Source: an uncultured Ectothiorhodospiraceae bacterium (GTDB taxonomy: Bacteria; Pseudomonadota; Gammaproteobacteria; UBA9214). From it: a stretch of DNA of 64,000 bases. The stretch lies in NCBI GenBank assembly GCA_947258515.1, contig CAMYIO010000033.1:609-64608 (forward strand), in the 5' to 3' direction. The position numbers and the translations under genes were made by a program. The notes beneath the pieces are model-generated. The model searched no databases, was not told the origin of the DNA, and saw only the letters and a list, made by a program, of their open reading frames with translations. Positions 5,206 to 29,707 of this stretch are shown one piece after another; within the stretch, counting starts at the first letter, position 1; every line of letters begins with the position of its first letter.

Positions 5206-5338
5206 TCCGGACTCCATGCACTGCATGAAACAAGCCGGACCGCCCGGGCAGTGTTAATCAGCAGCTAACCATTGCAAGCCTGCCATCAGGGGCCTATTGT
5301 GTCGCGGCATCCCGACCGGCAAAACAATACAGGACAAC

Positions 5339-6102: not shown

Positions 6103-6277
6103 CCGTTACCGAACACGGCGGATTCACCCGGCATAAACTGTTGACTTGCGTGGCGGGCAAGTCGCAGTCTTGCCCGCCCCTTGAGTTACCACCGCCATGC
6201 TGCGAAAATAATGAAGCTGTGCACAGGAACAATCAACGCATGTGGCAGTCAACAGTAAAATAAAGTGAGGTTTAGCT

Positions 6278-6571
6278 ATGAACATACCCGAACGCGACGG
6301 TGACGGTTACCTGGTCGACAGCAGCGTCTGGACAGAGGAGATTGCACGCGCCATGGCAGAAGCCGATGATGTGGAACTGGATGACGTCAAGTGGCAGCAA
6401 ATTCTGAAGGCGCGTGAGTACTACGAAGAACACGCCGTGGTGCCGCCCATACGGAAATTCTCCAAGTACCTCGGGGCGGACCAGAAAGAGATGTTCAAAA
6501 TGTGGATGACCGGCCCGATGAAGCCGATCACCAAGTACGGTGGATTGCCCAAACCCACTGGTTGCGTCTGA
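6278..6571 (+). CDS. tusE: TusE/DsrC-family sulfur relay protein
   Basis: 97 aa ending ...KYGGLPKPTGCV, the DsrC/TusE C-terminal arm. Only the penultimate Cys is present and the DsrC CysB position is Thr, so it is TusE-like. GAGG Shine-Dalgarno. Confidence 0.8.
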   Translation: MNIPERDGDGYLVDSSVWTEEIARAMAEADDVELDDVKWQQILKAREYYEEHAVVPPIRKFSKYLGADQKEMFKMWMTGPMKPITKYGGLPKPTGCV

Positions 6572-6896
6572 GGGGGGCAGCCGGACAGAGCTGCACAAGT
6601 CCATTCAACCCGGAAAAGCGGCAACCTGTACCAGACTGACAACTCTCTGACGCAAAAGCGACCCACAGCCGGGAATGGACCTGCTTGTCCATGCTATCGT
6701 TGCTCTGGTGTAGGTTGCTGCTGCAGTGCCACAGAAGGCCCGTTGCACGGAAATCACACGACACCCCTGCAGCCTGAACCCCACTGCATTGGTCCAGGTA
6801 CAGCTGGATCGCACGTCTCTTTGACCTGTATCAACGACTGTATGGGATTTTTTGTATAGGTTTTAGCAATTAAGACAAGAGAAAGGGACACAGATC

Positions 6897-7391
6897 ATGG
6901 TTCTGGACAACACACTGATTGGTGCACTGATCATTCTGCTGGTGGGGCTCTCTGCGCTTGTATTCTTCAACTGGTCAAATACCCGCAGTGCCCGCCGACA
7001 TACAGAAAAGATTTTCCAGCAACAGCACCTGGTAAGAACCCACCCGGACGTGCATCGCCTGTCCCAGGCAGTGCATTTACTGCGTCCCTCGGTACGCCTC
7101 GGTTTTGATTATGTCATCCAGCATGATGATGGCAAGCTCCCCTGTATCTCGGAATGGAACACCGGCGGCTCGATGCCGACACAGGCGGATCTTGATGATG
7201 CGCTCAAGAAAGTGACCACAATCGACTCCACCGGCTATGCAGCCATGCGCAGATCGGAGTACCCGAGCATCGAGGATCAACTGGATGCGGCCTACAAGGC
7301 ACGCCGTGGCGATTTGTCCGAGCAGGAAGAACTGGATCTGCGCATCGAACAGATCAAGAACAAGTATCCCAAAACAGACGACGCCCTCTGA
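6897..7391 (+). CDS. hypothetical membrane-anchored protein
   Basis: N-terminal transmembrane helix LIGALIILLVGLSALVFF followed by a soluble domain. Good Shine-Dalgarno (AGAAAGGGA). Confidence 0.5.
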   Translation: MVLDNTLIGALIILLVGLSALVFFNWSNTRSARRHTEKIFQQQHLVRTHPDVHRLSQAVHLLRPSVRLGFDYVIQHDDGKLPCISEWNTGGSMPTQADLDDALKKVTTIDSTGYAAMRRSEYPSIEDQLDAAYKARRGDLSEQEELDLRIEQIKNKYPKTDDAL

Positions 7392-7511
7392 TGTCGATTA
7401 CAAGGCGCCCGGCATTATACCTGCCGTGAATAACACACGGCCATATCCTGCGCCGCCTGTTACAGGCCGCTCGCAGGTATCAAAGAATCAGTCACCAGGA
7501 AGAGGAGTAAT

Positions 7512-8027
7512 ATGAACAACGTCCAACCGCTATCGGGTTCCCGGTATTCGCTAAAAAAGCTTTTCTGGCTATTGCTCCCGGTGGCCCTGTCTGTGCCGCT
7601 GGCGGTACACAGCAGTTCATCGAATAATGACGGAAACGAGGATGATCTTGAGACGCACTTCACCGATTTGCGCACTTTAGTCGAAATGCCCGAGCGGGCT
7701 CGCCAGATACTAATTGAAGACATGCTCGATCATCTTGCGGTATTGAATGAAATCAACCGTTACCTGTCCGAAAACAAACTATCCTCTGCCGCGGAGGTTG
7801 CGGAAACCGGCATGGGCCAGAGCCTGCTGAGCAAGTACCAGGACGAGGCGCTGCGGCCCGGACACTACATGCCGCAGGAAATGCGGGAAATCGGCTGGGA
7901 ACTGCACAATGCGGCAACCGGGTTCGCAAAGGCTGCCAGACAAGGCAATCTGCAGGAAACCTTGATTGCCTACCATCGCATCAGCAGTGCATGCGTAGCC
8001 TGCCACTACAGCTACCGCACCCGCTGA
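7512..8027 (+). CDS. class II c-type cytochrome (cytochrome c'/c556 family)
   Basis: Signal peptide, ~150-aa helical domain, and a single CXXCH (ACVACHYSY) close to the C-terminus as in cytochrome c'. Strong Shine-Dalgarno AGGAAGAGGAG. Confidence 0.65.
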   Translation: MNNVQPLSGSRYSLKKLFWLLLPVALSVPLAVHSSSSNNDGNEDDLETHFTDLRTLVEMPERARQILIEDMLDHLAVLNEINRYLSENKLSSAAEVAETGMGQSLLSKYQDEALRPGHYMPQEMREIGWELHNAATGFAKAARQGNLQETLIAYHRISSACVACHYSYRTR

Positions 8028-8049
8028 GTTAGCCGGTCTCAGCGCCGGC

Positions 8050-8997
8050 GTGCATGACGACACCGACAGACCGGAAGCCGATCCGTCGAAAAGCGAAGGG
8101 GCAGGCCGGGGGGTACCGTCCACCTACGCGATCGGTGACGTCCAGGGCTGCTTCGATGACTTGCTGAGGCTGCTGGACAAACTGGATTTCGATCCGGCGC
8201 ACGATCGCCTCTGGTTTACCGGAGATCTCGTCAACAAGGGACCCAACTCACTGGAACTGCTGCGCTTCGTGCATGGCCTCGGCAACGCTGCCATCAGCGT
8301 GCTCGGCAACCACGACCTGCACCTGCTCGCCACGGCGGCCGGGGCGGTCAAGATCCGCAAGAAGGACACTATAGCCGAGATCCTCGATGCCCCCGACTGC
8401 GAAGAACTCCTGTTCTGGCTGCGGCATCAACCACTCCTGCACCACAACGAGGCCCTTGGCTTCACCATGATTCATGCCGGACTCCCGCCACAGTGGGACC
8501 TGGATAAAGCCCGCCAATGTGCCTCTGAGCTGGAAACCGTGTTGCAGAACCTCGATTACGAGGACCTGTTCCTGCATTTGCAGAGAGACAGGCCGCTGCG
8601 CTGGAGGGAGGACCTGGAGGGCTGGGAACGCCTGCGTTATATCACTAATTGCTTCACACAGTTGCGCTGGTGCGATGCTGACGGCCGTATCGATCTGACG
8701 GGGGAAAGGCGCAAGTCGCCGTCAGGCAAAAAACGCTCGCGACCCTGGTTCGAGCTGCCGCGCCGCGCCGGCAAACCGCTGCGGATTATCTTCGGGCACT
8801 GGGCAAAGCTGGTCATCGCCGAGCCGACCAGGAGGGCCGCACGCGTCATCCCGCTGGACACGGGCTGTGCCAACGGCGGCCGGTTTACGGCATTTCGACT
8901 TCAGGACCAGCGCTATTTCAGACTCAAGTGCAAGAACAGGGCCGTCCCCTGGAGAAGTCTCGACATGGCCGATCGCAAGGTCAGGAAAAACCCGTGA
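8050..8997 (+). CDS. apaH: bis(5'-nucleosyl)-tetraphosphatase, symmetrical (ApaH)
   Basis: YAIGDVQGCFDDLLRLLDK...LWFTGDLVNKGPNSLE...GNHDLHLL metallophosphatase motifs match ApaH. N- and C-terminal extensions relative to E. coli. Confidence 0.85.
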   Translation: MHDDTDRPEADPSKSEGAGRGVPSTYAIGDVQGCFDDLLRLLDKLDFDPAHDRLWFTGDLVNKGPNSLELLRFVHGLGNAAISVLGNHDLHLLATAAGAVKIRKKDTIAEILDAPDCEELLFWLRHQPLLHHNEALGFTMIHAGLPPQWDLDKARQCASELETVLQNLDYEDLFLHLQRDRPLRWREDLEGWERLRYITNCFTQLRWCDADGRIDLTGERRKSPSGKKRSRPWFELPRRAGKPLRIIFGHWAKLVIAEPTRRAARVIPLDTGCANGGRFTAFRLQDQRYFRLKCKNRAVPWRSLDMADRKVRKNP

Positions 8998-9129
8998 GCC
9001 GTACAGCTACAGGAAAGTCAATCCGGACATTAATAACAATCCCGTTTGTTAAACCGGACACAAATGTTCTGGTAACATGATCCCTGCAAGAAAAGCAGGG
9101 GCCCTCGGCCCGGCATTCAAGGAAGCCAT

Positions 9130-9999
9130 GTGAACAACACTGCATCGAAGTCAGCCGTGCTGCTGATACACTGCCCGGATCAGAAGGGGATAGTGATATC
9201 AATTACCGAGTTCATATTCAAGAACGGCGGCAACATCCTCTATCTGGACCAGCACGTGGATACAGAGCGCCAGGTCTTTTTCATGCGCATCGAGTGGGAC
9301 TTGCATGACTTTGTCATTGCCGACGGCAAGATCGGTGAGTACTTTGAAACCCTCGTGGCAAAACGCTTCTCGATGAACTGGCAACTGCACTTCTCGAATG
9401 AAGTGCCGCGCATGGCACTGTTTGTGTCAAAACAGCCGCACTGCTTCTACGATATCCTGGCCCGCTACGAGGCTGGCGAGTGGCAGGTCGAGATCCCCCT
9501 GATTATCAGCAATCATACCGACATGCAGACCGCAGCCGAACGTCAGGGCATTGATTTTGTATACCTGCCGCTCAGCGCTGAGAACCGGGCGGAACAGGAG
9601 CACAAACAGCTTGAGCTGCTGCAAGAGTACCGTATCGATTTCATTGTTCTGGCGCGCTACATGCAGATCCTCAGTGACAACTTTATCGACAACTACCCGG
9701 ACCGCATCATCAATATCCATCATTCCTTTCTGCCTGCGTTTCCCGGTGCACGGCCCTACCACTCCGCGCATGAGCGGGGAGTGAAGATCATCGGCGCCAC
9801 CAGTCACTATGCAACCGCCGAGCTGGACACAGGACCGATCATCGAGCAGGACGTGGTGCGCGTGAGCCACGAGAATTCGGTTGAAGACATGATCCGCAAG
9901 GGTCGCGATCTCGAAAAGATGGTACTGGCCCGCGCCGTATGGCACCACCTGCACCATAACCTGCTGGTTTATGAAAACCGCACGGTTGTATTTGAATAG
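9130..9999 (+). CDS. purU: formyltetrahydrofolate deformylase (PurU)
   Basis: ACT domain followed by a formyltransferase domain with NIHHSFLPAFPGARPYHSAHERGVKIIGATSHYAT, near-identical to the E. coli PurU motif. Probable GTG start. Confidence 0.9.
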   Translation: MNNTASKSAVLLIHCPDQKGIVISITEFIFKNGGNILYLDQHVDTERQVFFMRIEWDLHDFVIADGKIGEYFETLVAKRFSMNWQLHFSNEVPRMALFVSKQPHCFYDILARYEAGEWQVEIPLIISNHTDMQTAAERQGIDFVYLPLSAENRAEQEHKQLELLQEYRIDFIVLARYMQILSDNFIDNYPDRIINIHHSFLPAFPGARPYHSAHERGVKIIGATSHYATAELDTGPIIEQDVVRVSHENSVEDMIRKGRDLEKMVLARAVWHHLHHNLLVYENRTVVFE

Positions 10000-10324: not shown

Positions 10325-11350
10325 ATGCAAGCCATCCGCAAGCTAGTCCTGATTCTTTTGCTGATCAGCTGTAGCCGGGCGTGGAGCGGGTTTTACGAGG
10401 GTTTTGTCCTCTATGAGCAGGGCAATTATGAACTGGCGCTGCAGGAATTCAGACCACTGGCAGAAGGGGGTAACGCCTTCGCGCAATTATATCTTGGCGT
10501 TATGTATAACAAGGGTCACGGTGTAACGCAGAATTTCAATGAAGCAATAAAGTGGTGGCGCATGTCAGCCGAGCAGGGCGGGGCTGTTGCGCAGTACAAC
10601 CTGGGTGGTATGTATGAACGTGGCCAGGGTGTCCAGCGCAATGACAGTGAAGCCGTGAAGTGGTATCGCAAGGCAGCCAATTCCGGCTTGGCCGACGCGC
10701 AGTACAATATGGGTAACATGTACACAAAGGGCAAGGGAATCCCGCAGAACTACAAGGTGGCGGCTTACTGGTATCGCAAGGCCGCGGCGCAGGATGATGC
10801 CCGCGCACAGTTAAGCCTCGGCGTCATGTACGACGGTGGCCGGGGAGTGGAAAGAGATTACGCACAGGCCGCGGACTGGTATCGCAAGGCGGCGGAACAG
10901 GGTGACCCACGGGCGCAATACAACCTCGGCGGTCTCTATGCAAAGGGTCAGGGTGTAGAAAAAGATTACTCGCAGGCGGCGGCCTGGTATCGCAAGGCGG
11001 CGGAACAGGGCGACCCGCTTGCGCAATACAATCTCGGCATCCTCTACGATGAAGGCCAGGGTGTATTGCAGGACGACAAGCTGGCAGTAAAGTGGTACCA
11101 CAGGGCTGCCGAGCAGGGGTTTGCCGATGCGCAATACAATCTGGCCATCATGTACCACGAGGGTATGGGGATTCAGCAGGATGATGTTAAGGCCTACAAG
11201 TGGTTCAGTATTGTTGCTGCGGGAGGCAATCATGGTGCGCTCAGTGGGCGCGATACCATTGCCAAAACAATGACAGCCACTCAGATTGCAGACGCTCAAA
11301 GGCTTGCCCGGGAGTGGCTTAACGCACATAAAGTGCAGGCAGCCAAATAG
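10325..11350 (+). CDS. Sel1-like repeat (TPR-like) secreted protein
   Basis: Signal peptide plus about 8 tandem ~36-aa Sel1 repeats (AQYNLGxMYxxGxGVxxD...A.KWYRKAAEQG). Confidence 0.8.
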   Translation: MQAIRKLVLILLLISCSRAWSGFYEGFVLYEQGNYELALQEFRPLAEGGNAFAQLYLGVMYNKGHGVTQNFNEAIKWWRMSAEQGGAVAQYNLGGMYERGQGVQRNDSEAVKWYRKAANSGLADAQYNMGNMYTKGKGIPQNYKVAAYWYRKAAAQDDARAQLSLGVMYDGGRGVERDYAQAADWYRKAAEQGDPRAQYNLGGLYAKGQGVEKDYSQAAAWYRKAAEQGDPLAQYNLGILYDEGQGVLQDDKLAVKWYHRAAEQGFADAQYNLAIMYHEGMGIQQDDVKAYKWFSIVAAGGNHGALSGRDTIAKTMTATQIADAQRLAREWLNAHKVQAAK

Positions 11351-11497
11351 GTTCACTCTCAACAATAACTCATAAATTACTGTTATTTAATGCATATAAC
11401 ATGATTTACTCTCATGGTGAACATACCAGCAGGCGCAGAAACCTCAAACGCGGCAGATAAATCGAGCTATAATATTAGGAATTGATTATATTTGGCC

Positions 11498-13483
11498 TTG
11501 TTAATGTACAAGCATTTCTACCAACTCGTCACCAATCCCTTCAGGCTCGCGCCCGAGCCCGATTTCTGTTTTAGCCATTCAGGCTACGAGCGCGCCAGGG
11601 AATACCTTGAATACGCACTTGCCCAGGGGGAAGGCTTTGTCATGGTGACCGGTCGACCAGGCACCGGTAAAACGATGCTGGTTGAAACGTTTCTCAAGGC
11701 AATCAACCCCGGCGAGGTGGCTGCAAGACGCATTGCCGTATCCAGTTTCGGGGCAACTGATCTACTGCGTGCCGTGGCTTACGCCTACGGTATCGAGGCA
11801 GCCGGGATGGACAAGGGCACCATGCGCCACCGGATTCAGCAGTTCTTTGTACAACAGGAGCGCACCGGACGGCGCGTACTGCTGATAATTGATGAGGCAC
11901 AGGCGCTCAGTCATGCCGCCCTGGAAGAACTGAGGATACTGGCAGACCTGCAGACGCAATCGCGCCTGATGCTGCAACTCTTTCTGGTCGGGCAGGAGTC
12001 GTTGCAGGATTTGATGCAGACACCTGCCATGGAGCAATTCCAGCAACGCGTCATCGCAAATTATCAGCTGGTGCCGCTCAATCTGGAAGACACGCGCGCA
12101 TACATTGAACATCGCCTGCTGCAAGCCGGCTGGAAAGGCGATCCGGAATTCAGCAGTGCCGCGGTGTCAGGAATTTATCAACTCAGTAATGGCGTGCCAC
12201 GCCATATAAACAAGATATGTAACCGCTTGTTGCTCCTCGGTTTCGGCAAGGCCAGCCACATCTTTGACGAACAGGACATCGTGGAAATAGCCGCCGAGAT
12301 GCGTGAAGAGCGATTAACACCGCTGGTGCCAAAGCAGACAACGCACAACGACGTTGGCAATGTCACCAATCTGTCCGAAATTCGTGATAGCCAGATATTC
12401 GGGACCGATCTGGCCATTCGGGCAGACAAGATGGATGCCAGTGCGGTCGCCATCGCTGAAGGTTCACGGCTGGCTGTACGGAACAAGGAAGGGTTTATAA
12501 CGCGTCACCACACACACCCTGTGAGCCGCCATGAGCAGACCACCACACCCGATATAGAAACGGCCACACCGGCAAAGATTGCGCCCGAGCCGTTACATGC
12601 CGCCAACGAATCGTTCACTGCAACACGTGATCCTGAACACAGGGTAAAAGAGCGCCATACAGGTCACCATGGCTGGAAAAGAACGCTATCCGTCACAGCC
12701 GTGTTGCTGGTCCTGTTGGCGGTCAGTGTCGCAGTCGTACCCTCATTTCCGGGACACGAAGGTGTCAGGGACAGGCTGCTGTCATTTTTGGATCAATTTC
12801 AACGGCAAGACCCGCGGCTTGCCACCTTGCTGGAAGAAACAGCAGCAGCGGCACCCGGTGCTGGCAGTGAAATACGGCTACAGGCTGAAGATGAAAACGT
12901 GAGCACACCTGCGCAAGATGCTGGCCCGGCCGCACCGACCACAGCTACCGCCGGTGTTATCAACAGACATCCTGTGAAGACCGGGGGATCTGTCCCGGCG
13001 TCGTGGATTACTAAAATACGCGGGCAGGCCAATGTCATGGAGAGCAGCAATATCGAGGTGATACTTGCACAAGGCCGACAGGCACTGGATGACTACCGTC
13101 TGGTGACGCCCGAAGGCAATAATGCCTATGAATACCTGCTTGCAGCCCTGCAGCTGGATCCGGGAAACGAACCGGCCCAGGCGGGTATTGAGGAGATTGT
13201 TGATATTTATATTACACTCGCATCAAAGGCCGCAAACAACAACGAGCTCGAGAGAGCAGGTCGCTACCTTGATCGCGGGCTCGGCATACAACCGGATAAC
13301 CCTGAGTTACTGGTATTGAGAAACACCGTTAACGGCACAATGGAAGCTGCGCACGTAATGCAGGGGACAGCGGCACAGCTAACAGGCGATAGCACGACAT
13401 CGCGGTTACAGCCGGCCCTGATAAAACGGCAGGCCGCGGACAGAAGGCACGACCTCAGCACCACGGCTGGCTGGGATAGCTGA
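11498..13483 (+). CDS. ExeA/GspA/MshM-family AAA+ ATPase with transmembrane anchor and periplasmic TPR-like tail
   Basis: N-terminus MYKHFYQLVTNPFRLAPEPDFCFSHSGYERAREYL...VTGRPGTGKTML is the ExeA/AAA_16 signature. A transmembrane helix lies near residues 395-415, followed by TPR-like C-terminal repeats. An AT-rich promoter region lies upstream. Confidence 0.7.
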   Translation: MLMYKHFYQLVTNPFRLAPEPDFCFSHSGYERAREYLEYALAQGEGFVMVTGRPGTGKTMLVETFLKAINPGEVAARRIAVSSFGATDLLRAVAYAYGIEAAGMDKGTMRHRIQQFFVQQERTGRRVLLIIDEAQALSHAALEELRILADLQTQSRLMLQLFLVGQESLQDLMQTPAMEQFQQRVIANYQLVPLNLEDTRAYIEHRLLQAGWKGDPEFSSAAVSGIYQLSNGVPRHINKICNRLLLLGFGKASHIFDEQDIVEIAAEMREERLTPLVPKQTTHNDVGNVTNLSEIRDSQIFGTDLAIRADKMDASAVAIAEGSRLAVRNKEGFITRHHTHPVSRHEQTTTPDIETATPAKIAPEPLHAANESFTATRDPEHRVKERHTGHHGWKRTLSVTAVLLVLLAVSVAVVPSFPGHEGVRDRLLSFLDQFQRQDPRLATLLEETAAAAPGAGSEIRLQAEDENVSTPAQDAGPAAPTTATAGVINRHPVKTGGSVPASWITKIRGQANVMESSNIEVILAQGRQALDDYRLVTPEGNNAYEYLLAALQLDPGNEPAQAGIEEIVDIYITLASKAANNNELERAGRYLDRGLGIQPDNPELLVLRNTVNGTMEAAHVMQGTAAQLTGDSTTSRLQPALIKRQAADRRHDLSTTAGWDS

Positions 13484-13726
13484 CGATAACCGGCCGGCCC
13501 GCTGGTCAGGCAGGTGAAAGTCAGCCAGCCGTCCGGGCTCGCGAGCGCTGGCCTTCGGTCTGCCTGGTTAAGATGACAGGATCAGACACCCCGGCAGGCC
13601 CGGCTTCATTTAAATCATCGGATCAATCTTTGACCAGGATCAAACCCAAAGGCATGGCACAGCGCCGATAATCCCCATACAGCAATCCGTATTAACAACA
13701 ATCCTGTCACTGCGGGACCTACTCAG

Positions 13727-16480
13727 GTGATGACAGCACTCACTGACAGTAACAAGGGCATAGCCGTCCTGAATGCACGACTCGGTCGACTGCTGGGTGT
13801 CATCATCCTGCTGTTCTCGCTGCTGGCGCTCAATTCGATCTATCTCGCAGCCATTTCACTGTTCGAGGCAATAAGTGGCGAAGTACAGCAGAACTATTTT
13901 TACCTGCTGATGTTCCTGCTGCACCTGGCGCTGGGCCTGTTGATCACCCTGCCGGTGATCGTGTTCGCACTGGCACACATGCGGCGCGCCTGGCGGCGAC
14001 CGAATCGTTATGCTGTCAGGGCAGGTATGGGGCTGTTCTTCACAGTACTGGTATTGCTGTTTTCCGGGCTGTTGCTGACGCGCTTCGAGTTCTTCGAGAT
14101 CAACGATCCACAGGTGCGACGCATTGGCTACTGGCTGCACGTCATCAGTCCGTTCGTCGTTATCTGGCTATTCGTGCTACACCGTCTTGCCGGCCCGCCG
14201 ATCCGCTGGAAGACCGGCTTGCGCTGGTTACTTGCCACCACGGGATTTGCAGCCGTGATGATCGTGCTGCAGACGCTCATACTGACCGACAGCAGTGCAG
14301 CGAAAACAGTGGCATTCCCGCCCTCGCTGGCAATCATGCAGGGCAGCGATTCGATACCGCCTGAACATCTGATGACGGATGAGGCCTGTGCACAGTGCCA
14401 CCCGGACATCGCAAAGACGCACGAACAGAGCATGCACCGCTTCAGCTCCTTCAATAACCCGGCCTACAAATTCAGCGTCGAGGAAACACGCAGGGTCGTG
14501 CTGCAGCGCGATGGCACTGTGCAGGCAGCGCGTTTTTGCGCCGCCTGCCACGATCAGGTCCCCCTGTTCAGCGGTCAGTTCGACGACCCGGACTACGATA
14601 CCGAAGGAAACCCGACGGCACAGGCCGGTATCACCTGCATGGTCTGTCACGCCATGACCCGGGTCAATGGTGTGCACGGTAATGGAGACTTCACCATTGC
14701 CGATCCGCCACGCTATCCCTTCGCATTCAGCGAGTCGCCACTGCTGCACAGTATCAACGCACAGCTGATCAAGGCGAAACCGGCATTCCACATGAAAACC
14801 CTGCTGAAACCGTTTCATCGCACCGCCGAATTCTGTTCTGTCTGCCACAAGGCAAATCTGCCGTCCGAGGTCAATCATTACCGCTGGCTGCGTGCCCAGG
14901 ACCACTATGACAGCTTCCTGCAGAGTGGTGTTTCCGGGCACCGGGTAGACAGTTTCTATTACCCGGCACAGGCCGTAGCACGCTGCAGTGATTGTCATAT
15001 GCCGTTGATGCCGTCAGACGACCCGGCGGCACGCGATTTCGATTACAGCAAGCAGCGCAGCGTGCACAATCACCAGTTCCCGGCGGCCAATACCGGTATC
15101 ACAAAGCTGCTGGATTTACCCGACTGGGTCATGCAGGCACACCGGCAGCGTCTCAGCGATGTCACGCGCGTCGATATCTTTGCCATCAAGGAAGACGGTC
15201 GCATCGATGGTGAACTGCATGCGCCGTTACGGCCGTCGCTACCGGAATTGCTGCCCGGGAAACGCTACCTGGTCGAGATCGTCGTCCGCACCACCGGGGT
15301 CGGACATCACCTGACGCAGGGCACCGCTGACTCCAATGAACTGTGGCTGGATGTGACTGTCAGTGCGGACGGCAAGCTCATCGGCCGTAGCGGCAGCCTG
15401 GATGCACAGGGGGCCGTCAACCCCTGGTCCTACTTCGTCAACAGCTATGTACTGGACAGGCAGGGCAGGCGCATTGACCGGCGCAACGGTCAGGATATCT
15501 TTGTCGCCCTCTACAACCACCAGATTCCGCCAGGCGCCGCGACCGTGGTGCACTACCTGCTGGAGGTACCGCAAGACGCACGGGGACCGGTTGCCATCGA
15601 GGCACAACTAAACTACCGTAAATTCGACGCAACCTACCTGCGTCACCTGCAGGGCGAACAATACAGCGGCAACCGGCTACCGGTCACGGTGATGGCATCT
15701 GACCGGCTGCAGTTGCCATTGCAGGGCCAGCATGCCTCACTCGACGAGCAACAAATCGTGGCAGTCAAGCCCGGCGAGCGCTGGAATGACTACGGCATCG
15801 GGCTACTTCGTGAAGGCAACAGCGGATCCAGCAAGGGCGAATTGCGCCAGGCGGAACAGGCCTTTCAACAGGTGGAGGCGCTGGGTGAAAACAGCGGCGC
15901 GCTGAACCTGGCGCGCGTCTACTTCAAGGAAGGACAGCTGGAACAGGCCGCAATGGCACTGCGGCGAGCCAGCGAGCAACAGGCACTGCCGTGGACAATC
16001 GCCTGGTACAGCGCCCTGATCGACCGCGAAAACGGCCACCTGGAGGCCGCGACACGCACCCTGGAATTCATTATCAACAATCAGTTCGCGGACGCACGCC
16101 AGCGCGGCTTCGACTTTTCCTACGACGTCAGGGTGCTGAATGAACTGGGCCGTACCCTGTATGAGCGCAGCCGGCAATTGCACGGTGCCGCGCAGCACGA
16201 ACTGCTGATACAGGCGCTGGGCTGGTTTGACAGGACCTTGCGAATAGATCCTGAGAACCTTGCCGCGCATTACAACCTCGCCCTGGTGCATGCGCAGCTC
16301 GGCAATACCGAAAAGTCAGGACAACATCGGGCATTGCATGAAAAATACCGTCCGGATGATCACGCCGTTGAACAGGCGGTCGCCCGACACCGCCGCGACA
16401 ATCCTGCCGCCGATCATGCCGCCGCCGCCACTGCCATCTACGACCTGGGCCGCGGGTTAAACGTAGAGACCGACCATTGA
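13727..16480 (+). CDS. polytopic membrane multiheme c-type cytochrome (5 CXXCH) with C-terminal TPR domain
   Basis: 4-5 N-terminal transmembrane helices, then CAQCH, CAACH, CMVCH, CSVCH and CSDCH heme motifs, then TPR repeats in the last ~250 aa. Confidence 0.75.
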   Translation: MMTALTDSNKGIAVLNARLGRLLGVIILLFSLLALNSIYLAAISLFEAISGEVQQNYFYLLMFLLHLALGLLITLPVIVFALAHMRRAWRRPNRYAVRAGMGLFFTVLVLLFSGLLLTRFEFFEINDPQVRRIGYWLHVISPFVVIWLFVLHRLAGPPIRWKTGLRWLLATTGFAAVMIVLQTLILTDSSAAKTVAFPPSLAIMQGSDSIPPEHLMTDEACAQCHPDIAKTHEQSMHRFSSFNNPAYKFSVEETRRVVLQRDGTVQAARFCAACHDQVPLFSGQFDDPDYDTEGNPTAQAGITCMVCHAMTRVNGVHGNGDFTIADPPRYPFAFSESPLLHSINAQLIKAKPAFHMKTLLKPFHRTAEFCSVCHKANLPSEVNHYRWLRAQDHYDSFLQSGVSGHRVDSFYYPAQAVARCSDCHMPLMPSDDPAARDFDYSKQRSVHNHQFPAANTGITKLLDLPDWVMQAHRQRLSDVTRVDIFAIKEDGRIDGELHAPLRPSLPELLPGKRYLVEIVVRTTGVGHHLTQGTADSNELWLDVTVSADGKLIGRSGSLDAQGAVNPWSYFVNSYVLDRQGRRIDRRNGQDIFVALYNHQIPPGAATVVHYLLEVPQDARGPVAIEAQLNYRKFDATYLRHLQGEQYSGNRLPVTVMASDRLQLPLQGQHASLDEQQIVAVKPGERWNDYGIGLLREGNSGSSKGELRQAEQAFQQVEALGENSGALNLARVYFKEGQLEQAAMALRRASEQQALPWTIAWYSALIDRENGHLEAATRTLEFIINNQFADARQRGFDFSYDVRVLNELGRTLYERSRQLHGAAQHELLIQALGWFDRTLRIDPENLAAHYNLALVHAQLGNTEKSGQHRALHEKYRPDDHAVEQAVARHRRDNPAADHAAAATAIYDLGRGLNVETDH

Positions 16481-16590
16481 ATTCGCGGATGCGGTCCGCT
16501 CCTACAGGTGGCTGTAATGGGTGTAGGAACGCTCCGCGAGCGCGATCGGGGTAACTGCTGGATTCGCGGATGCGATCCGCTCTTATAGAG
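16481..16590. repeat. REP-like palindromic element cluster (type B)
   Basis: attcgcggatgcggtccgctcctacag ... tgtaggaacgctccgcgagcgcgatc ... gattcgcggatgcgatccgctcttatagag. It is the reverse complement of the tgtaggagcggaccgcgtccgcgaa motif repeated at 58262. Confidence 0.5.
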
Positions 16591-16696
16591 CCACAAAAGT
16601 ATGCTGTGATAATGCATTCAAATGATGTACATCAATTCACCACACCACCGCGGGGTTGTAAAATCCCGCTATGTATTCATCTACTGACAAACTTTC

Positions 16697-18535
16697 ATGA
16701 CAAAGCAACACAATAATACTGACACCACACGGGCCGGTGAAGCCATCATTCGGCACTGGTTTCGCCGCTCACTCGCCATCATCCTGGGCGTCGGGATTAT
16801 CGCAGCCGGCATTGTCTGGTACCTGGGGCGCGACAGCGCACCCGACATAATTATCGAAGAGGCCGTCGTCAGCGGCCCGGTCGTTGCGGCACACACACCG
16901 CAGCAAACCCCTCCGGCGGTGATCTTCAGGGATATCACGGCAGCAGCCGGTATTGAGTTTGTCCATACAAACGGCGCCTACGGTGACAAGCTCATGCCGG
17001 AGACCATCGGCAGCGGTGCGGCATTCCTCGATTACGACAATGACACTGACCAGGACCTGTTACTGGTGAATTCCAGCTGGTTCCCCGGCCATGAACAGGA
17101 GAACCTGCCAACACTGGCACTGTACCGGAACGATGGCAGCGGCCGGTTCACCGACGTCACCCGGGAAACCGGACTGGCCATCAACTGCTACGGCATGGGC
17201 GTCGCGGCCGGTGATTATGACAACGACGGCTGGACAGATCTGTATATCACGGCACTGGGTGACAATTATCTGCTCAAAAACGGGCAGGGACACTTTACCG
17301 ATGTAACGACATCCACGGGCACCGCCGGCCAGACCTCCGACTGGAGTACAGCAGCAGCCTTTCTTGATATCGACAATGACGGTGACCTGGACCTGTTTGT
17401 CGGCAACTACGTGCAGTGGTCACGCCAGATTGATCTGGAGATCGACTTTCGCCTCACCGGCGTGGGACGTTCGATTGGTGCCCCCAACCATTTTTTCGGT
17501 ACTACCAACCGGCTGTACCGTAATGAGGGTGATGGCCGTTTCAGCGATGTATCCGCATCAGCGGGCATCATGATTACTGACCCCGTCACGCATGCACCGG
17601 CAGGCAAAACGCTGTCAGTAGCCCCGGTAGATTATGACCGCGATGGCCTTATGGACCTGTTCGTAGCCAATGACACCACCCGGAACTTTCTCTATCACAA
17701 CCTCGGCAAAGGACAATTCGAGGAGATCGGCGCCCTCGAGGGTATTGCCTATGACCGCAACGGCAAGGCCACCGGTGCCATGGGCATCGACGCCGCGTAT
17801 TTCCGCAATGATGAGGACCTCGGCATCGGTATTGGCAACTTCGCCAACGAAATGAGCTCACTGTATGTCACGGCCGGCGGACAGCCGCCCTTTGCTGACG
17901 AAGCCATCCTGGAGGGTTTTGGACCGGCGTCACGCCTGGCACTGACCTTTGGACTGTTCTTCTTTGACTATGACCTTGACGGCCGGCTCGACCTGTTTCA
18001 GGCAAACGGTCACCTCGAAACAGAGATCAACCTCATGCAGTCCAGCCAGACCTATGCACAAGCCGCGCAGTTGTTCTGGAATTGCGGGTCGGCCTGCCGC
18101 AGCCGCTTTGTTACCGTCACCGACAGTGGCGATTTTGCCAATCCCATGGTCGGCCGCGGCGCCGCCTACGCGGATATCGATAGTGACGGTGACCTCGACG
18201 TGGTGGTCACCCAGAACGGCCGCCGGGCCGTACTGTTCCGCAATGACCAGTCACTCGGGCATCATTGGCTGCGGGTCCGGCTGGTAGGAGATCGCGCCAA
18301 CCGAAACGCCATTGGTGCCACAGTGGAGATATCGGTCGACGGCGTTACCCAGCGGCGGATGGTGATGCCGACACGCAGCTACCTGTCCCAGTCCGAACTG
18401 CCCGTCACCTTTGGCCTGGGTACCCGCCACTCACTGGATGAACTGCACATCACCTGGCCTGACGGCCAGCGGCAAACCGTTCCCGTGCCCGCCGTCAATG
18501 TCATGATGACCATCACCCAAAGCGACCAGCCATAG
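16697..18535 (+). CDS. CRTAC1-family protein (FG-GAP repeats + ASPIC/UnbV domain)
   Basis: Repeated DxDxDGxxD calcium-binding FG-GAP motifs (DYDNDGWTDLYIT, DIDNDGDLDLFVGN, DYDRDGLMDLFVAND, DIDSDGDLDVVV) and a C-terminal ASPIC/UnbV-like segment. N-terminal transmembrane/signal anchor. Confidence 0.8.
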   Translation: MTKQHNNTDTTRAGEAIIRHWFRRSLAIILGVGIIAAGIVWYLGRDSAPDIIIEEAVVSGPVVAAHTPQQTPPAVIFRDITAAAGIEFVHTNGAYGDKLMPETIGSGAAFLDYDNDTDQDLLLVNSSWFPGHEQENLPTLALYRNDGSGRFTDVTRETGLAINCYGMGVAAGDYDNDGWTDLYITALGDNYLLKNGQGHFTDVTTSTGTAGQTSDWSTAAAFLDIDNDGDLDLFVGNYVQWSRQIDLEIDFRLTGVGRSIGAPNHFFGTTNRLYRNEGDGRFSDVSASAGIMITDPVTHAPAGKTLSVAPVDYDRDGLMDLFVANDTTRNFLYHNLGKGQFEEIGALEGIAYDRNGKATGAMGIDAAYFRNDEDLGIGIGNFANEMSSLYVTAGGQPPFADEAILEGFGPASRLALTFGLFFFDYDLDGRLDLFQANGHLETEINLMQSSQTYAQAAQLFWNCGSACRSRFVTVTDSGDFANPMVGRGAAYADIDSDGDLDVVVTQNGRRAVLFRNDQSLGHHWLRVRLVGDRANRNAIGATVEISVDGVTQRRMVMPTRSYLSQSELPVTFGLGTRHSLDELHITWPDGQRQTVPVPAVNVMMTITQSDQP

Positions 18536-18542
18536 GTACAAC

Positions 18543-20219
18543 ATGTCATTTCTCAACAGGCTTAAACTGCTCACATTTATCACCTTGCTGCTGGCCGGTC
18601 CACCTGCCATGGCGGGCGATGCCGCATCCGCGCTGCCCGTGTCGCTGGCAGGCAGCTTGCGGGCCATCCAGGAGGTCAGGCTGGATGACCTGGATACGCA
18701 GGCCCGGGACAGTATCCAGCTGGCACGGCGACAACTCAACGAGGTGCTGCAAGCGCAACCCGTTCAGCTTGACAAGCTGGCCGCCGCCTATGGTGAGCTG
18801 GGCGGACTCTACCAGGTCCACGCTGCCTTCCCGGCTGCTGAGGATTGTTACCACAATGCCGGGCAACTGGCACCCGATGAGTTCCGCTGGGCCTACTACG
18901 CAGCCTATCTCGCCGAGAAGGACGGGCGTACCAAACTGGCCCTGGACCGCTACCGGCATGCCCTGACACTGGACACCGCCTACAAGGCCCTTACGCTGCG
19001 GCTTGGAAACATCCTGCTGGATCTCAACGAACTGGAGCAGGCGCAGACAGCGTTTCAAGAGGTTGTAAGCGCCGTCGGACTGGAGGCGGCGTCTCTATAC
19101 GGTCTCGGGCAGATTGCCCTGCTGCAGCGCGATTATGACACGGCCATTGATGCCTTTACCCGTGCCCTGCAGTACGAACCGGCCGCATCCCGCATACATT
19201 ACCCACTGGCGCAGGCACTGCGTGCAACACAGCGTAACGACGAGGCAAAAGCCCAGCTGGCACTGCGCGGTGACCAGCCACCTTCCTTCAGAGACCCGCT
19301 GATCGAGGGCCTCGAAGCACTGAAGATCGGCTCACGTTTCCAATTCCTGCAGGCCATGAAGGCTATCAAGCGGCAGGACTATGCAGCAGCCAGCGAGGCC
19401 TTTGCAGAGGGGCTGTCCGGCGATCCGGACAATGTTCAGGCCCGCATCAGTTACGCACGCACGCTGTACCTCGCAGATAAAAAGAGCGGGGCCCGGCAGG
19501 CACTGGAAGCAGCACTTGCCATGCAGCCGGACAACTCGCTGGGCCTGTTCCTGCTGGGGATACTGGCTGAAGAGACGGGTGATGCCAGCAAGGCCGCCTC
19601 TTATTACCGTCTCGCGATTCGCTACACGCCTGACCATACCGGTGCGCATCAATACCTGGCCGATCAGTATTACCGTCAGGGCAACTACACAGCAGCTGCA
19701 GAACACTATGCCAGCAGTATCAGGGGAGAACCGAGCAATCTGGCGGCGACGATCCCCTACATAGGGACGCTGCTGCTAACCGATGCGCCTGCCGCCACCT
19801 TGATGACCGAGCTTGAAACCGCAATCGATCGTTTTCCTGAATATCCCGGCTTCAAGTCCCTGCAAATACTGCTGCTGGCCGGCAGCCGTAATCCAGAGAT
19901 TCATGCCCCGGAAACGGCGCTGAAAAACGCACAGCAACTGAACGATCAGTACCGAATACCACCGCACCAGGAATTGCTGGCGCTGGCCTACGCAGCGTCT
20001 GGCGACTACCCGCAAGCGGTATCCATGCAGGAAGAGCTGCTGTCCTATGCGCACCGCGCCATGCCGGGAGAGGCGGACCGCGTGGCACAAACCCTCGCTT
20101 ACTATCAGGACAAGACACTGCCCCCGCTGGATGAGCTTCTCAATTATGCTGCATTAGAGGCACAAAGATTCAATGCCACCGCGGCGTTTCGCGATTACCC
20201 GGCACCCAGACCCTATTGA
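18543..20219 (+). CDS. TPR-repeat secreted protein
   Basis: Signal peptide MSFLNRLKLLTFITLLLAGPPAMA followed by many TPR repeats. Sits directly after the CRTAC1 gene. Confidence 0.75.
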   Translation: MSFLNRLKLLTFITLLLAGPPAMAGDAASALPVSLAGSLRAIQEVRLDDLDTQARDSIQLARRQLNEVLQAQPVQLDKLAAAYGELGGLYQVHAAFPAAEDCYHNAGQLAPDEFRWAYYAAYLAEKDGRTKLALDRYRHALTLDTAYKALTLRLGNILLDLNELEQAQTAFQEVVSAVGLEAASLYGLGQIALLQRDYDTAIDAFTRALQYEPAASRIHYPLAQALRATQRNDEAKAQLALRGDQPPSFRDPLIEGLEALKIGSRFQFLQAMKAIKRQDYAAASEAFAEGLSGDPDNVQARISYARTLYLADKKSGARQALEAALAMQPDNSLGLFLLGILAEETGDASKAASYYRLAIRYTPDHTGAHQYLADQYYRQGNYTAAAEHYASSIRGEPSNLAATIPYIGTLLLTDAPAATLMTELETAIDRFPEYPGFKSLQILLLAGSRNPEIHAPETALKNAQQLNDQYRIPPHQELLALAYAASGDYPQAVSMQEELLSYAHRAMPGEADRVAQTLAYYQDKTLPPLDELLNYAALEAQRFNATAAFRDYPAPRPY

Positions 20220-20302: not shown

Positions 20303-20328
20303 AAAAAAGGCGCACCCTGGGGTGCGCC
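20303..20328 (-). terminator. rho-independent terminator of the Gly/Tyr-rich protein gene
   Basis: On the minus strand GGCGCACCC-cag-GGTGCGCC followed by TTTTTT, lying 65 nt downstream of the stop at 20393. Confidence 0.55.
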
Positions 20329-20392
20329 CTATGCACTGCGTGGCTACCGATTCAGCACTCAGGATATTAACTGAATCGATAGCGCTTGCAGA

Positions 20393-20782
20393 TTACTTCG
20401 CCGGCGCTGCGGCGGGTGCTGCCGGTGCTGCCGGTGCTGCCGGTGCTGCCGGTGCTGCCGGTGCATAGCCATAGCCACCCCAGCCATAGCCCGGATAGCC
20501 ACCATAGCCACCATAGCCGTAGCCCGGATAACCGCCATAGCCACCATAGCCGTAGCGCGGATAGCCGCCATAGCCGTAGCCCGGATAGCCACCCCAGCCA
20601 TAGCCCGGATAGCCGCCATAGCCGTAGCCCGGATAGCCGCCATAGCCCCAGGGGCCACCACCCCAGGGACCGTAATAGTCGTCATAATAATCATTACCCC
20701 ACCAGGCACTGGCTGTACCGGCGCCCAGGGCGGCAGTACCGGCAACGATGGCGACGGCAATAAGCTTGGTCATTTCCTTCAT
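20393..20782 (-). CDS. secreted Gly/Tyr-rich repeat protein, sulfur-globule-protein (Sgp)-like
   Basis: Signal peptide MKEMTKLIAVAIVAGTAALGAGTASA, then about 9 GYPGYGYGG/GYGGYGGYP repeats, then a C-terminal (PAA)6 tail. GGAGG Shine-Dalgarno 7 nt upstream. All three overlapping frames are open only because of the tandem DNA repeats, and only this frame has a signal peptide. Confidence 0.6.
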   Translation of the reverse strand: MKEMTKLIAVAIVAGTAALGAGTASAWWGNDYYDDYYGPWGGGPWGYGGYPGYGYGGYPGYGWGGYPGYGYGGYPRYGYGGYGGYPGYGYGGYGGYPGYGWGGYGYAPAAPAAPAAPAAPAAPAAAPAK

Positions 20783-20971: not shown

Positions 20972-21973
20972 TTAAGTAGCCTCACACATCGTCCGTACCC
21001 GTGGTGTCGCCGTATCCACCTCCAGCTCCGAGGGCAGCGATGCCGTTGGATCCAGTATCCATGACAGCATATCCTGCAGCACCACGGCGGCCTGCAGGTC
21101 GCGTGTCAGCATGTGATAACCGTCCGGGTAGAGCACCATTCGCCAGCGGGCAGCCTGCGGCTCGGGAAGTCCCTGCAGCATTGCGCACACCGAGTTTGGC
21201 GGGATGATGTCATCATTTTCTCCGTAAAGGATCAGCGCCGGCAGGGTCAGCTGCCGGCTGGAGAGCAGTGCTGACTCCATCAGGTTGGTGAGGCCGAACA
21301 TGGCATCGATACGCGTTGCCTTGATGACCAACGGATCCCGCCCCAACGCACGCAACATTTCGATATTATCCGACGGGGTGATTTCAAGACCGTCACCGGT
21401 GAGCGTCTGACCGGGTGCCGTATGTGCCGCCAGCCACAGTGCCGAGCGCTGCAACACCGGCATGACTTGCCAGCCCCATACCGCCGGTGCCACGAGTATG
21501 ATGCCTTTGAGACAGGATGCTTCGGCATCCTGGAGCAAATTCATGACCACGGCACCGCCCATGCTTTCACCAAGCAGGTACAGGGGGATACCGGGATGGC
21601 GTGCACACAGCAACTGCACCACCGTGCGGGCATCCTGCTGCAGGACATCGGCACCCGGCCAGATACCGCGCTGCTCCGTCTCGCCAAAGCCGCGCTGGTC
21701 ATAGGCGTAGGTCATGATACCGTTGACTGCCAGGTATTCCGCCGGCGCAGCAAAGGCCAGGCGGTAATCATTAAAGCCATGCAGGCCAAGTACGATCGCC
21801 TGCGGTTCACCCGCCGGTTGCCAGATACTTATTGGCAAGCGGTAGCCATCCGCCATACTGGCATCCACTGGAGTCAGTATCGGGACCTGTGTAGTATCGG
21901 ACGTTACCTGCACCCCGGGTGTGGCACACGCCAGCAGCCAGAACGGCATCAACAGATATACAAGGGCATTCAT
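20972..21973 (-). CDS. alpha/beta-hydrolase lipoprotein (lysophospholipase/monoacylglycerol-lipase-like)
   Basis: Lipobox LLAC, then HGFNDY oxyanion region and GESMGG nucleophile elbow. Confidence 0.75.
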   Translation of the reverse strand: MNALVYLLMPFWLLACATPGVQVTSDTTQVPILTPVDASMADGYRLPISIWQPAGEPQAIVLGLHGFNDYRLAFAAPAEYLAVNGIMTYAYDQRGFGETEQRGIWPGADVLQQDARTVVQLLCARHPGIPLYLLGESMGGAVVMNLLQDAEASCLKGIILVAPAVWGWQVMPVLQRSALWLAAHTAPGQTLTGDGLEITPSDNIEMLRALGRDPLVIKATRIDAMFGLTNLMESALLSSRQLTLPALILYGENDDIIPPNSVCAMLQGLPEPQAARWRMVLYPDGYHMLTRDLQAAVVLQDMLSWILDPTASLPSELEVDTATPRVRTMCEAT

Positions 21974-21989
21974 AGAGCGGAGAGAGACC

Positions 21990-22277
21990 ATGTCAAATGA
22001 AGGTTACCATGAACCCATTAACGAACTGTCGGATGAGACACGCGACATGCACCGCGCCATCACCTCACTGATGGAGGAACTCGAGGCGGTTGACTGGTAC
22101 AACCAGCGGGTTGATGCCTGCAAGGACAAGGAGCTGAAAGCCATACTGGCGCATAACCGTGACGAGGAGAAGGAACACGCCGCCATGGTGCTGGAATGGA
22201 TCCGGCGCAAGGATCCGGCCTTTGACAAGGAGTTGAAGGACTATCTATTCACCGACAAGGAAATCGCGCATAGCTGA
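21990..22277 (+). CDS. ferritin-like protein of the encapsulated-ferritin (EncFtn) family
   Basis: MSNEGYHEP...MEELEAVDWYNQRVDACKDKELKAILAHNRDEEKEHAAMVLEWIRR closely matches the EncFtn di-iron ferroxidase motifs. There is no C-terminal encapsulin targeting peptide and no adjacent encapsulin gene. Confidence 0.7.
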   Translation: MSNEGYHEPINELSDETRDMHRAITSLMEELEAVDWYNQRVDACKDKELKAILAHNRDEEKEHAAMVLEWIRRKDPAFDKELKDYLFTDKEIAHS

Positions 22278-22407: not shown

Positions 22408-23521
22408 TCAGAACCATATTGAAACGAAAAGCTGCGCCACGTCGGCACCGAATTTGTACAGCGGTTCATCTCCCGCCGGTGCGCCGCTGTCGCGCAGATC
22501 GCGAAAATCATGGTAGTTGAACCAGATGTGATCATAGGACAGGTTAATACTGCCACGGTCTATCCAGCGCCAGCCATTCTGTACGAAATCATAACTCAAC
22601 GAAAACCCGAGCGTGTTGCTGTCAAAAGAGCTGAGTTCCTTGTCGCGCGCGAGAAAGTTCTGTGCATCCCTGCGCGGGAACAGGTCACTGTAAAAGTCGG
22701 CTGAATTCTGCGTGTAATAGCGGTAGTGAGCTTCAAATAACCAGCCACCGCTCAGCGGGTGTATGTAGGCAAGCTTGACGTTATGCGCCCGGATTCCCCA
22801 GGTGTCATCAAAGATCCGGTACTCTGCATAGGTTGATGCACGATAAGGTAAATAATAAAGTCCGCGCACGGCAACTGCGTTGCTGGTGCGTGTATTCGGG
22901 TAGACCTCCGGCTGATAACTGTAACCCGGAGAACTCGCAGTATCGATGTAACGCACCGAACGGTAGGGATTATTCAAATATGCTGATCACCTGCGTGAGC
23001 CCGACTGTATAATTCTGCCGGTCCACATCTTCGGAGAAGGCAGGGTCGTTATTGTTGCCAACGACATCCCAGCCACGTGCATATCCCAGTGTCACGGTGG
23101 TCATGTTGCCAAACATGTCCATGCTGATACCAAAACTGGCGGTATTGGCCGAGTAATCACTCTCCTCACTGTTGGTATAGGAGACACTCATAATCGAATT
23201 GCCATGCAGGTAGTCTGCACCCAGCGAGTATTCAGTTCGCTCTTCCGTGTAGGGACTGGCCGTGGTGACGACATCAATGGATGCGCTGCTGATGGAATCC
23301 ACGTAGTAGTTACCGCTGAGCGCAAAATTCTGCCCGACGTTTTTCAGAACCAGCACCGATGGCCCGGTGATCTCGACCCCGCCGCCATCATAGGAGTGAT
23401 ACAGCGCATCGGCACGGTCATCCGGCAACACGCCGGCCACGGTCGGCAAGCCGCTGCACAGCAGGCACAGACCCGCGAGACAGGTTTTGCGGATACTAGT
23501 TACAGCCACAGCCCCCACCAT
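22408..23521 (-). pseudogene. DUF3570-like outer-membrane protein, split by a frameshift near 22970
   Basis: Two abutting 189-aa ORFs. The N-terminal half carries the signal peptide (LAGLCLLCSGLPTVAG). The C-terminal half ends ...FVSIWF, the terminal-Phe signature of outer-membrane barrels. Together they make ~378 aa, typical of DUF3570. It sits next to the DUF4266/TlpA partners. Confidence 0.5.
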
Positions 23522-23732
23522 TACCACCTTCAGCACCACGCGCCGCCTCGCGTGCCTGGTAGACGTGAATCATGTAGGAGGATGACACCGGGTTGCGTTC
23601 GAAACGCATGATTTCATCCGCAAGGTATTCACGCTCATAGGGCTTTACCCAGGGTTCGACCATACTGCAAGCCGGCAGGTACAACACACCCAGAACGAGA
23701 ATAACTGCTTTGCGGATAGTCACTGCCGTCAT
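23496..23732 (-). CDS. DUF4266-like small lipoprotein
   Basis: 78 aa, lipobox LPAC, C-terminal Gly-rich ...GGNGGGCGCN tail. Conserved neighbour of DUF3570 and TlpA genes. Confidence 0.55.
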   Translation of the reverse strand: MTAVTIRKAVILVLGVLYLPACSMVEPWVKPYEREYLADEIMRFERNPVSSSYMIHVYQAREAARGAEGGNGGGCGCN

Positions 23733-29704: not shown

Positions 29705-29707
29705 CCA

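Follow-up and report, generated by a model that had tools for sequence, protein, structure and literature searches.

A 64,000-nucleotide stretch of DNA from an uncultured Ectothiorhodospiraceae bacterium (assembly GCA_947258515.1, contig CAMYIO010000033.1, positions 609 to 64,608 of the forward strand), hereafter called the window, carries genes encoding a membrane multihaem cytochrome (g2), a CRTAC1-type propeller (g3) and a tetratricopeptide repeat (TPR) protein (g4). They are preceded by a gene for an ExeA-type ATPase (g1) and followed by a gene resembling those of sulfur globule proteins (Sgp). A preliminary description of the window had reported g1 to g4 as four co-oriented open reading frames (ORFs) of a single envelope system, and the four ORFs lie exactly where it had placed them. 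On the plus strand, g1 (11492..13483) encodes a 663-aa P-loop ATPase of the ExeA/GspA type, with a Pfam AAA_22 domain and a transmembrane (TM) helix; g2 (13727..16480), the core gene of the module, a 917-aa fusion cytochrome with TM helices, five CXXCH motifs and TPRs; g3 (16697..18535) a 612-aa membrane-anchored, Ca-binding beta-propeller of the CRTAC1/ASPIC type with FG-GAP_3 and UnbV_ASPIC domains; and g4 (18543..20219) a 558-aa secreted protein recognized by TPR profiles. On the minus strand, the Sgp-like gene (20393..20782) encodes a 129-aa secreted Gly/Tyr/Trp-rich protein with GGYPGYG-type repeats. The cluster had been placed directly upstream of this gene. The two do adjoin, but the Sgp-like gene is read from the other strand, towards g4, and ends at an intrinsic terminator of its own, a hairpin at 20307..20330 (minus strand) with a 10-bp stem, seven G-C pairs and a T-run on the minus strand. 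The same hairpin marks the end of the g2-g4 unit.

To see which of these genes belong together, we compared their neighbourhoods in other genomes. One genome per species was scanned for relatives of g2; 581 loci were confirmed and 80 of them kept, all with at least 50% identity, from Gammaproteobacteria, Planctomycetota, Acidobacteriota, Latescibacterota, Verrucomicrobiota and Methylomirabilota. Neighbours were counted by tblastn of the window proteins against the kept loci, the denominators being the loci with enough sequence. Immediately downstream of g2, the propeller gene g3 is present in 56 of 59 loci, drawn from at least six phyla (33/34 gamma-like loci and 23/25 loci of other phyla), and the identities of the two proteins to those of the window co-vary across loci (r = 0.89, n = 59). 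By contrast, g4 follows g3 in 26/29 gamma-like loci and in none of the 20 loci of other phyla. The conserved unit is g2 plus g3; g4 joins it only in Gammaproteobacteria, as an accessory of the module. The preliminary description had named co-occurrence of all four genes in other genomes as the point on which its proposal depended: the three module genes do co-occur in this way, g1 does not (see below).

In Acidobacteriota, Latescibacterota and Planctomycetota, g2 and the g3 orthologue lie inside co-oriented arrays, which also hold three to five CRTAC1 paralogues with 27-39% identity to g3, genes for small TPR proteins and genes for TPR-FG-GAP-ASPIC fusions 1000-1200 aa long. Array loci include L058 (positions 3-9956), L040 (14620-22734), L044, L047, L063 and L075. 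There is one cytochrome per array, always beside one particular CRTAC1 orthologue, and the arrangement suggests a modular family of propeller "heads" around a single cytochrome. Since fusions of TPRs with FG-GAP and ASPIC domains exist, TPR and propeller appear to be functionally tied. In Gammaproteobacteria, the TPR partner is the separate g4, and g2 bears a TPR tail of its own. An apparent g2-g3 fusion ORF in L065, considered as Rosetta-stone evidence, was rejected, as its first 980 codons are an out-of-frame artefact of GC-rich sequence. Some source labels are doubtful. Two contigs labelled "Halobacteria archaeon" (L011, L018) have the gammaproteobacterial order of g2, g3, g4, the Sgp-like gene and a hydrolase gene, and so are probably mis-binned contigs of metagenome-assembled genomes (MAGs). 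The locus labelled "Akkermansia muciniphila" (L073) carries g2 alone, and its label is questionable only on other grounds.

The preliminary description called the genes tightly spaced. This is true of g3 and g4, separated by 7 bp, and not of g1 and g2 (243 bp) or of g2 and g3 (216 bp, 16481..16696). The latter spacer contains two copies of a REP-like (repetitive extragenic palindromic) repeat, ATTCGCGGATGCGRTCCGCTC, at 16481-16501 and 16562-16582; a third copy is at 58269-58289 on the minus strand, and these three matches in the window compare with 0.01 expected by chance. In some more distant relatives, such as L004, the g2-g3 spacer is down to approximately 27 bp. The two REP-like copies explain much of the length of the window spacer relative to the short ones of some distant relatives.

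The description of g1 as an ExeA/MshM-type ATPase with a periplasmic TPR tail holds for the ATPase and less well for the tail. The N-terminal, cytoplasmic AAA_22 domain (PF13401, E 5.1e-25) has Walker A (GRPGTGKT, residues 54-61) and Walker B (LLIIDEAQ, residues 130-137) motifs and is followed by one TM helix at about residues 395-423, while the TPR-like match in the tail is below threshold (Fis1_TPR_C, 19.5 bits against a cut-off of 25.3, E 0.0011). As a 100%-identical database protein has 659 aa, the true start of g1 is probably the ATG at 11504. Relatives of g1 are named "ExeA" or "AAA family ATPase" in the sources. With ExeA/GspA (COG3267) it shares the AAA_22 P-loop domain and the single TM helix, but it has no match to the peptidoglycan-binding (PG_binding) domain, and no genes of ExeB/GspB, of the type II secretion system or of the MSHA (mannose-sensitive haemagglutinin) pilus were found among the scanned window ORFs or beside g1 homologues. 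The match to TIGR03015, the ATPase associated with the XrtA/PEP-CTERM system, is full-length (residues 5-273), but its 282.6 bits are below the cut-off of 324.5, and there is no exosortase gene among the scanned window ORFs. A reading of the locus as a defence system was dropped, as PADLOC gave only noise at the level of the P-loop.

Could g1 nevertheless drive the assembly or secretion of a complex of the cytochrome, the propeller and the TPR protein, making all four genes one apparatus, as had been proposed? In the window and in a 97%-identical relative, the four share one orientation, the layout of g1 (cytoplasmic ATPase, TM helix, periplasmic tail) is ExeA-like, and a simple scan predicted no terminator in the g1-g2 spacer. 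Against this, the spacer is 243 bp long, and g1 is found within 10 kb of g2 in one of 52 loci. It is directly upstream of g2 only in the 97%-identical relative. In L002 (g2 84% identical), 4 kb and other genes separate it from g2; in a relative with an 86%-identical g2, the distance is 8 kb, spanned by about ten genes; and in L005 (g2 also 86% identical), the 8.8 kb in front of g2 do not contain it. More distant g1 homologues (50-58% identity) occur in unrelated neighbourhoods, beside hydrogenase, sulfatase and housekeeping genes, with no cytochrome or CRTAC1/propeller gene. Given the single co-location with g2 and these unrelated neighbourhoods, g1 is a stand-alone ATPase gene and an unrelated neighbour of g2-g3-g4. 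As the neighbourhood of g1 is not conserved with g2, the combination of a secretion/assembly ATPase with a cytochrome is an accident of local gene order. The four-gene apparatus is already largely refuted by the neighbourhood data, and we consider it very improbable.

The immediate neighbours of g1 in the window are g2 and a gene for a Sel1-repeat protein (10325-11350, plus strand; seven repeats, E 1.5e-78), located directly upstream. The Sel1-g1 pair is kept in L002 and is not kept beside more distant g1 homologues. Between the two genes is an AT-rich intergenic region (11351..11491, GC 34-35%, compared with 56% for the window); the segment 11351-11497, with 35% GC, is among the lowest 0.06% of 147-nt windows. 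It had been taken for a dedicated promoter of the cluster. The segment is indeed exceptionally AT-rich, but it would serve g1 and not the module: it is probably the promoter region of g1, outside the conserved unit. A simple promoter scan found no consensus sigma-70 site in it.

The cytochrome g2 had been described as a redox-active polytopic membrane protein with TPRs, and its five CXXCH motifs, approximately five N-terminal TM helices and C-terminal TPRs agree with that. The protein comprises a membrane domain of five TM helices (residues 1-188, nt 13727-14290), a pentahaem c domain (residues 205-470, nt 14339-15136), a beta-sandwich (residues 478-665, nt 15158-15721) and a TPR domain (residues 682-898, nt 15770-16420), all on the plus strand. 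In the AlphaFold2 model, built with 44 sequences and having a predicted local distance difference test score (pLDDT) of 73, helices span residues 17-187 (five TM helices), a mostly helical haem domain about 210-470, the sandwich 480-665 and the TPRs 682-898; the last two are modelled with high confidence. By the positive-inside rule, the predicted topology is N-in, C-out, with the haem c domain in the periplasm. The sequence is unusually well conserved, with full-length identity across phyla of about 50% or more.

Two sets of histidines are of particular interest. In the membrane domain, H66 and H84 of TM2 and H138 and H152 of TM4 are invariant across phyla and are paired near the periplasmic and cytoplasmic helix ends. 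The fold modelled for this domain resembles that of di-haem b cytochromes, but generic helix bundles match it equally well; the stronger argument for a b-type domain is the invariance and pairing of the four histidines. In the periplasmic part, the haem-binding motifs start at C221, C271, C304, C370 and C420, and the haem domain has five more invariant histidines (H237, H355, H364, H393, H449). In each of the 44 aligned relatives there are exactly five CXXCH motifs; CXXCK is absent from these proteins as well as from g2 itself. From this pattern, all five haems appear to be bis-His ligated, and the domain would then be a wire and not an active site.

A Foldseek search with the full model against PDB returned only TPR proteins, and the middle domain alone has no Pfam match at E up to 10. 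The haem domain together with the Ig-like beta-sandwich matches the fold of the low-potential penta-haem cytochrome c552 of Thermochromatium tepidum (PDB 5ZE8), which has the same two domains, although the identity is only 19%. This c552 belongs to a "PHC" group with no established function, together with ExtKL and Gsu2801 of Geobacter, sPHC and lPHC of cable bacteria, and PtdA. With MtrC/OmcA there is only a borderline match of residues 217-317 to PF22113 (30.3 bits, cut-off 30); those proteins are outer-membrane decahaem lipoproteins in which two pentahaem and two beta-barrel domains alternate, and g2 has five haems and a polytopic inner-membrane N-terminus. It also differs from NrfA, in which CXXCK binds the catalytic haem with lysine as proximal ligand, by the lack of this motif in itself and in all of the aligned relatives. 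While c552 and the PHC proteins are soluble or secreted, g2 adds the five-helix membrane domain with its four invariant histidines and the C-terminal TPRs, and has a near-obligate CRTAC1 neighbour. In its periplasmic part, g2 falls in the c552/PHC fold group; the architecture of the whole protein is new.

Some of these matches bear on whether g2 is itself an enzyme. It could be a periplasmic enzyme that, like NrfA, MccA or OTR, reduces or oxidises a soluble substrate (nitrite, sulfite, polysulfide or tetrathionate), with g3 and g4 in accessory or maturation roles and g4 acting as a haem-attachment chaperone of the NrfG/CcmI type. The first haem region has weak matches to NrfA-clan proteins and to an MccA-like selenoprotein; PtdA, a relative of c552, falls in the COG of NrfA; and g4 exceeds the threshold of TPR_CcmH_CycH (59 bits, cut-off 42), in addition to matching TPR_16, TPR_19 and TPR_2. 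However, TPR profile matches are promiscuous, and the absence of g4 outside Gammaproteobacteria, despite equal conservation of g2, makes a dedicated maturation factor unlikely. Neither CXXCK nor any other atypical haem motif is present in any relative, the five invariant non-motif histidines would be available as distal ligands for all five haems, and the closest structure is the non-catalytic c552 and not NrfA. A catalytic g2 is thus rather unlikely.

The partner of g2 is a genuine member of the CRTAC1/ASPIC family, as the preliminary description had recognized. In g3 we found five FG-GAP_3 repeats (124 bits, E 3e-36), UnbV_ASPIC (70 bits, E 1.5e-19) and similarity to human CRTAC1 (9etn, E 4.3e-15). 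The DxDxDG motifs of the Ca-binding propeller are conserved in 44 orthologues, and the N-terminal hydrophobic anchor is kept in 43 of 45. The assignment of g4 as a TPR protein has also stood; with its signal-peptide-like N-terminus, it is secreted.

Propellers near multihaem cytochromes need not have a redox role. The NHL propellers UetH and UetI of "Ca. Tenderia" and Gmet_0556 are non-redox proteins of multihaem clusters thought to organise or stabilise the complex (bioRxiv 10.1101/2022.05.06.490989). In the same way, g2-g3-g4 could be mainly a structural, adhesive or scaffolding complex of CRTAC1 and TPR proteins, in which the cytochrome is an anchor or a redox sensor, with no haem b and no contact with the quinone pool. 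The NHL examples, for which adhesion has also been considered, agree with this, as do the large CRTAC1/TPR arrays and fusions around g2 in other phyla and a membrane domain that has no sequence match to known b cytochromes and is fitted equally well by generic bundles. On the other hand, the four TM histidines do not vary across phyla and are arranged as would be expected for a pair of stacked haems; the strict set of five haem motifs, with the high identity across phyla, speaks for a constrained redox function; and each array has a single cytochrome, always with the same CRTAC1 orthologue at its side. We regard a mainly structural complex as unlikely, though somewhat less so than a catalytic g2.

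An indication of what the module may act on comes from its flanks. We scanned all loci, 1.19 Mb in total, for small Gly- and Tyr-rich ORFs. The Sgp-like ORFs that it found are clearly homologous and encode a signal peptide ending in A-x-A, followed by a WWG motif, GGYPGYGWGG-type repeats and a tail rich in Ala and Pro. Such ORFs are confined to the module borders of gamma-like loci and are found nowhere else in the 1.19 Mb. In 18 of the 25 loci with room for it, the Sgp-like gene is convergent and lies within 1 kb downstream of g4; elsewhere, it is immediately upstream of g2, co-oriented in L017 and divergent in L021 and L034. The 21 Sgp-flanked gamma-like loci are labelled Chromatiaceae, Ectothiorhodospiraceae, Thiotrichales and Sedimenticola, so that the gene is a conserved neighbour of the module in Gammaproteobacteria of the sulfur-oxidiser type. 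The wide span of g2 identity among them (55-84%), the occurrence on both sides of the module and the other flanking genes, which differ between lineages, argue that the linkage of the module with the Sgp-like gene is selected and is not frozen synteny. The preliminary description had guessed at a tie to periplasmic sulfur handling, and the Sgp-like flank in these 21 loci lends the guess comparative support.

The window protein has no Pfam or NCBIfam family match and is a putative Sgp by its hallmarks. The Sgps of Allochromatium vinosum are small (11-13 kDa), repetitive proteins with a Sec signal, encoded by monocistronic genes with their own terminators (PMC10386293). The protein of the window fits these hallmarks: it has 129 aa, a signal-peptide-like N-terminus and GGYPGYG repeats, and its gene has its own terminator. 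In addition, a role in sulfur metabolism has been suggested for the c552 of T. tepidum itself (PMC11976967). Directly upstream of the Sgp-like gene and co-oriented with it is a gene for an alpha/beta-hydrolase (Hydrolase_4; 20972-21991, minus strand), which is syntenic only in the closer relatives L001, L002, L008, L011, L018 and L082.

The design of g2, as predicted here, follows the same principle as that of the CbcL-type oxidoreductases, with no detectable sequence relationship between them and with haem b in g2 only inferred. CbcL has a b domain of the HydC/FdnI type and nine c haems and is not known to have a propeller partner; the TM domain of g2 matches no Pfam family, its five c haems are in a different fold, and it carries TPRs. 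In Geobacter sulfurreducens, CbcL and the CbcBA/ImcH-type systems combine a b-type domain in the membrane with a multihaem c domain in the periplasm, either as a fusion or as a pair, and lead from the quinone pool to periplasmic acceptors (bioRxiv 10.1101/2022.08.31.506072, PMC11492766). CRTAC1-family genes have been reported in another setting in a 2025 paper, between the homologues of HZS-alpha and HZS-beta-gamma (HZS, hydrazine synthase) in non-anammox bacteria (PMC12758564). These clusters, as well as those with NHL propellers, have other propeller families or cytochromes, with no TM-pentahaem-TPR fusion and no link to Sgp. Taken together, the module can be seen as a variant of two known kinds, the bc-type membrane multihaem conduits and the PHC cytochromes. 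The propeller that accompanies the cytochrome is conserved very widely and is undescribed as its partner, and the link of the module to sulfur globules is suggestive.

From sequence, predicted fold and gene neighbourhood, we tentatively propose, with a confidence somewhat short of even, that g2-g3-g4 is an electron conduit linked to the quinone pool and docked to a propeller anchored in the membrane; in sulfur oxidisers, it would be aimed at sulfur globules. In this model, the membrane domain of g2 would bind two b haems, one between H66 and H138 on the periplasmic side and the other between H84 and H152 on the cytoplasmic side, and would trade electrons with the quinone pool or pass them from one side of the membrane to the other. 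For each of the five c haems there is a candidate distal ligand among the invariant histidines, and these haems would act as a wire and not as a site of catalysis. Docking of this wire onto the g3 propeller may be the task of g4 and of the TPR tail of g2, and the propeller would hold the real substrate or partner. Where Gammaproteobacteria store sulfur, the Sgp-coated globule in the periplasm is the probable target, and electrons would pass between quinol/quinone and the stored sulfur, either reducing and mobilising elemental sulfur (S0) or oxidising it. In other phyla, paralogous propeller arrays could adapt the same conduit to other extracytoplasmic substrates.

Several observations weigh against this model. 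The Sgp-like gene forms a transcription unit of its own, convergent with the module. Phyla without sulfur storage commonly carry the module too, with no Sgp-like gene beside it; for this reason, sulfur cannot be its general substrate. No match to the TM domain of g2 was found in Pfam (E up to 10) or by a profile search of PDB, and part of the haem domain is modelled with moderate confidence (pLDDT 45-75 for residues 310-420). The orthologues of g3 have no conserved cysteine, and the few histidines invariant among them (H90, H439) make up no recognisable metal or cofactor site, although the lack of conserved cofactor residues says nothing about what the propeller binds. Finally, every relative found comes from a MAG.

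A bolder version of the conduit model can be formulated. In sulfur-oxidising Gammaproteobacteria, the module could be the missing link between the quinone pool and sulfur stored in the periplasm, namely a quinol:sulfur-globule oxidoreductase whose propeller and TPR parts would dock a wire of b and c haems on the Sgp coat, serving the reductive mobilisation of S0 or its respiration in the dark; with other CRTAC1 paralogues, it would be a general, hitherto unrecognised means by which Planctomycetota, Acidobacteriota and others exchange electrons with insoluble or colloidal substrates outside the cytoplasm. In this full form the proposal is decidedly unlikely.

How sulfur oxidisers regain access to the contents of their periplasmic sulfur globules has long been an open point of their physiology. 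A membrane cytochrome of putative b/c type conserved beside an Sgp-like gene is a concrete candidate for the mobilisation step. Apart from sulfur, the g2-g3 pair is of interest as a very widespread one that is unnamed in the sources. The g2 family comprises 3252 representative clusters at E <1e-3 and 666 clusters (50% identity) at E <1e-30, and its members, which occur among others in MAGs of Sedimenticola, Thiogranum and Chromatiaceae, are called only "TPR repeat protein", "multiheme c-type cytochrome" or "hypothetical". In the searchable literature, we found no paper on the g2-g3 pair, on the module or on its linkage to Sgp, so that the statement that this is not a described system holds as far as that literature goes. 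Recognising the g2-g3 unit gives the bacterial CRTAC1-family propellers their first consistent functional context.

Beyond the Sgp-like and hydrolase genes, the window contains several other features. DUF3570 is split over two overlapping ORFs on the minus strand (22408-22977 and 22970-23539) and corresponds to a single 386-aa gene in L082; the split probably reflects a frameshift, a pseudogene or a sequencing error. At 25676-28342 (minus strand) is a gene, also syntenic in L082, for an 888-aa protein with the "middle domain" of hydrazine synthase alpha (PF18582, E 5.6e-14), so that a gene of the HZS-alpha type and a CRTAC1 gene lie within 8 kb of each other in this genome. Further along, on the plus strand, two genes at 28496-32200 encode proteins with planctomycete-style domains, one with PSD2/DUF1585 (weak) and the other with Laminin_G_3 and a weak cytochrome c motif. 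At 35629-41064 (plus strand), four consecutive genes encode proteins in which only TPRs were recognized (628, 254, 683 and 202 aa); one of the four includes a YfiO/BamD-like region.

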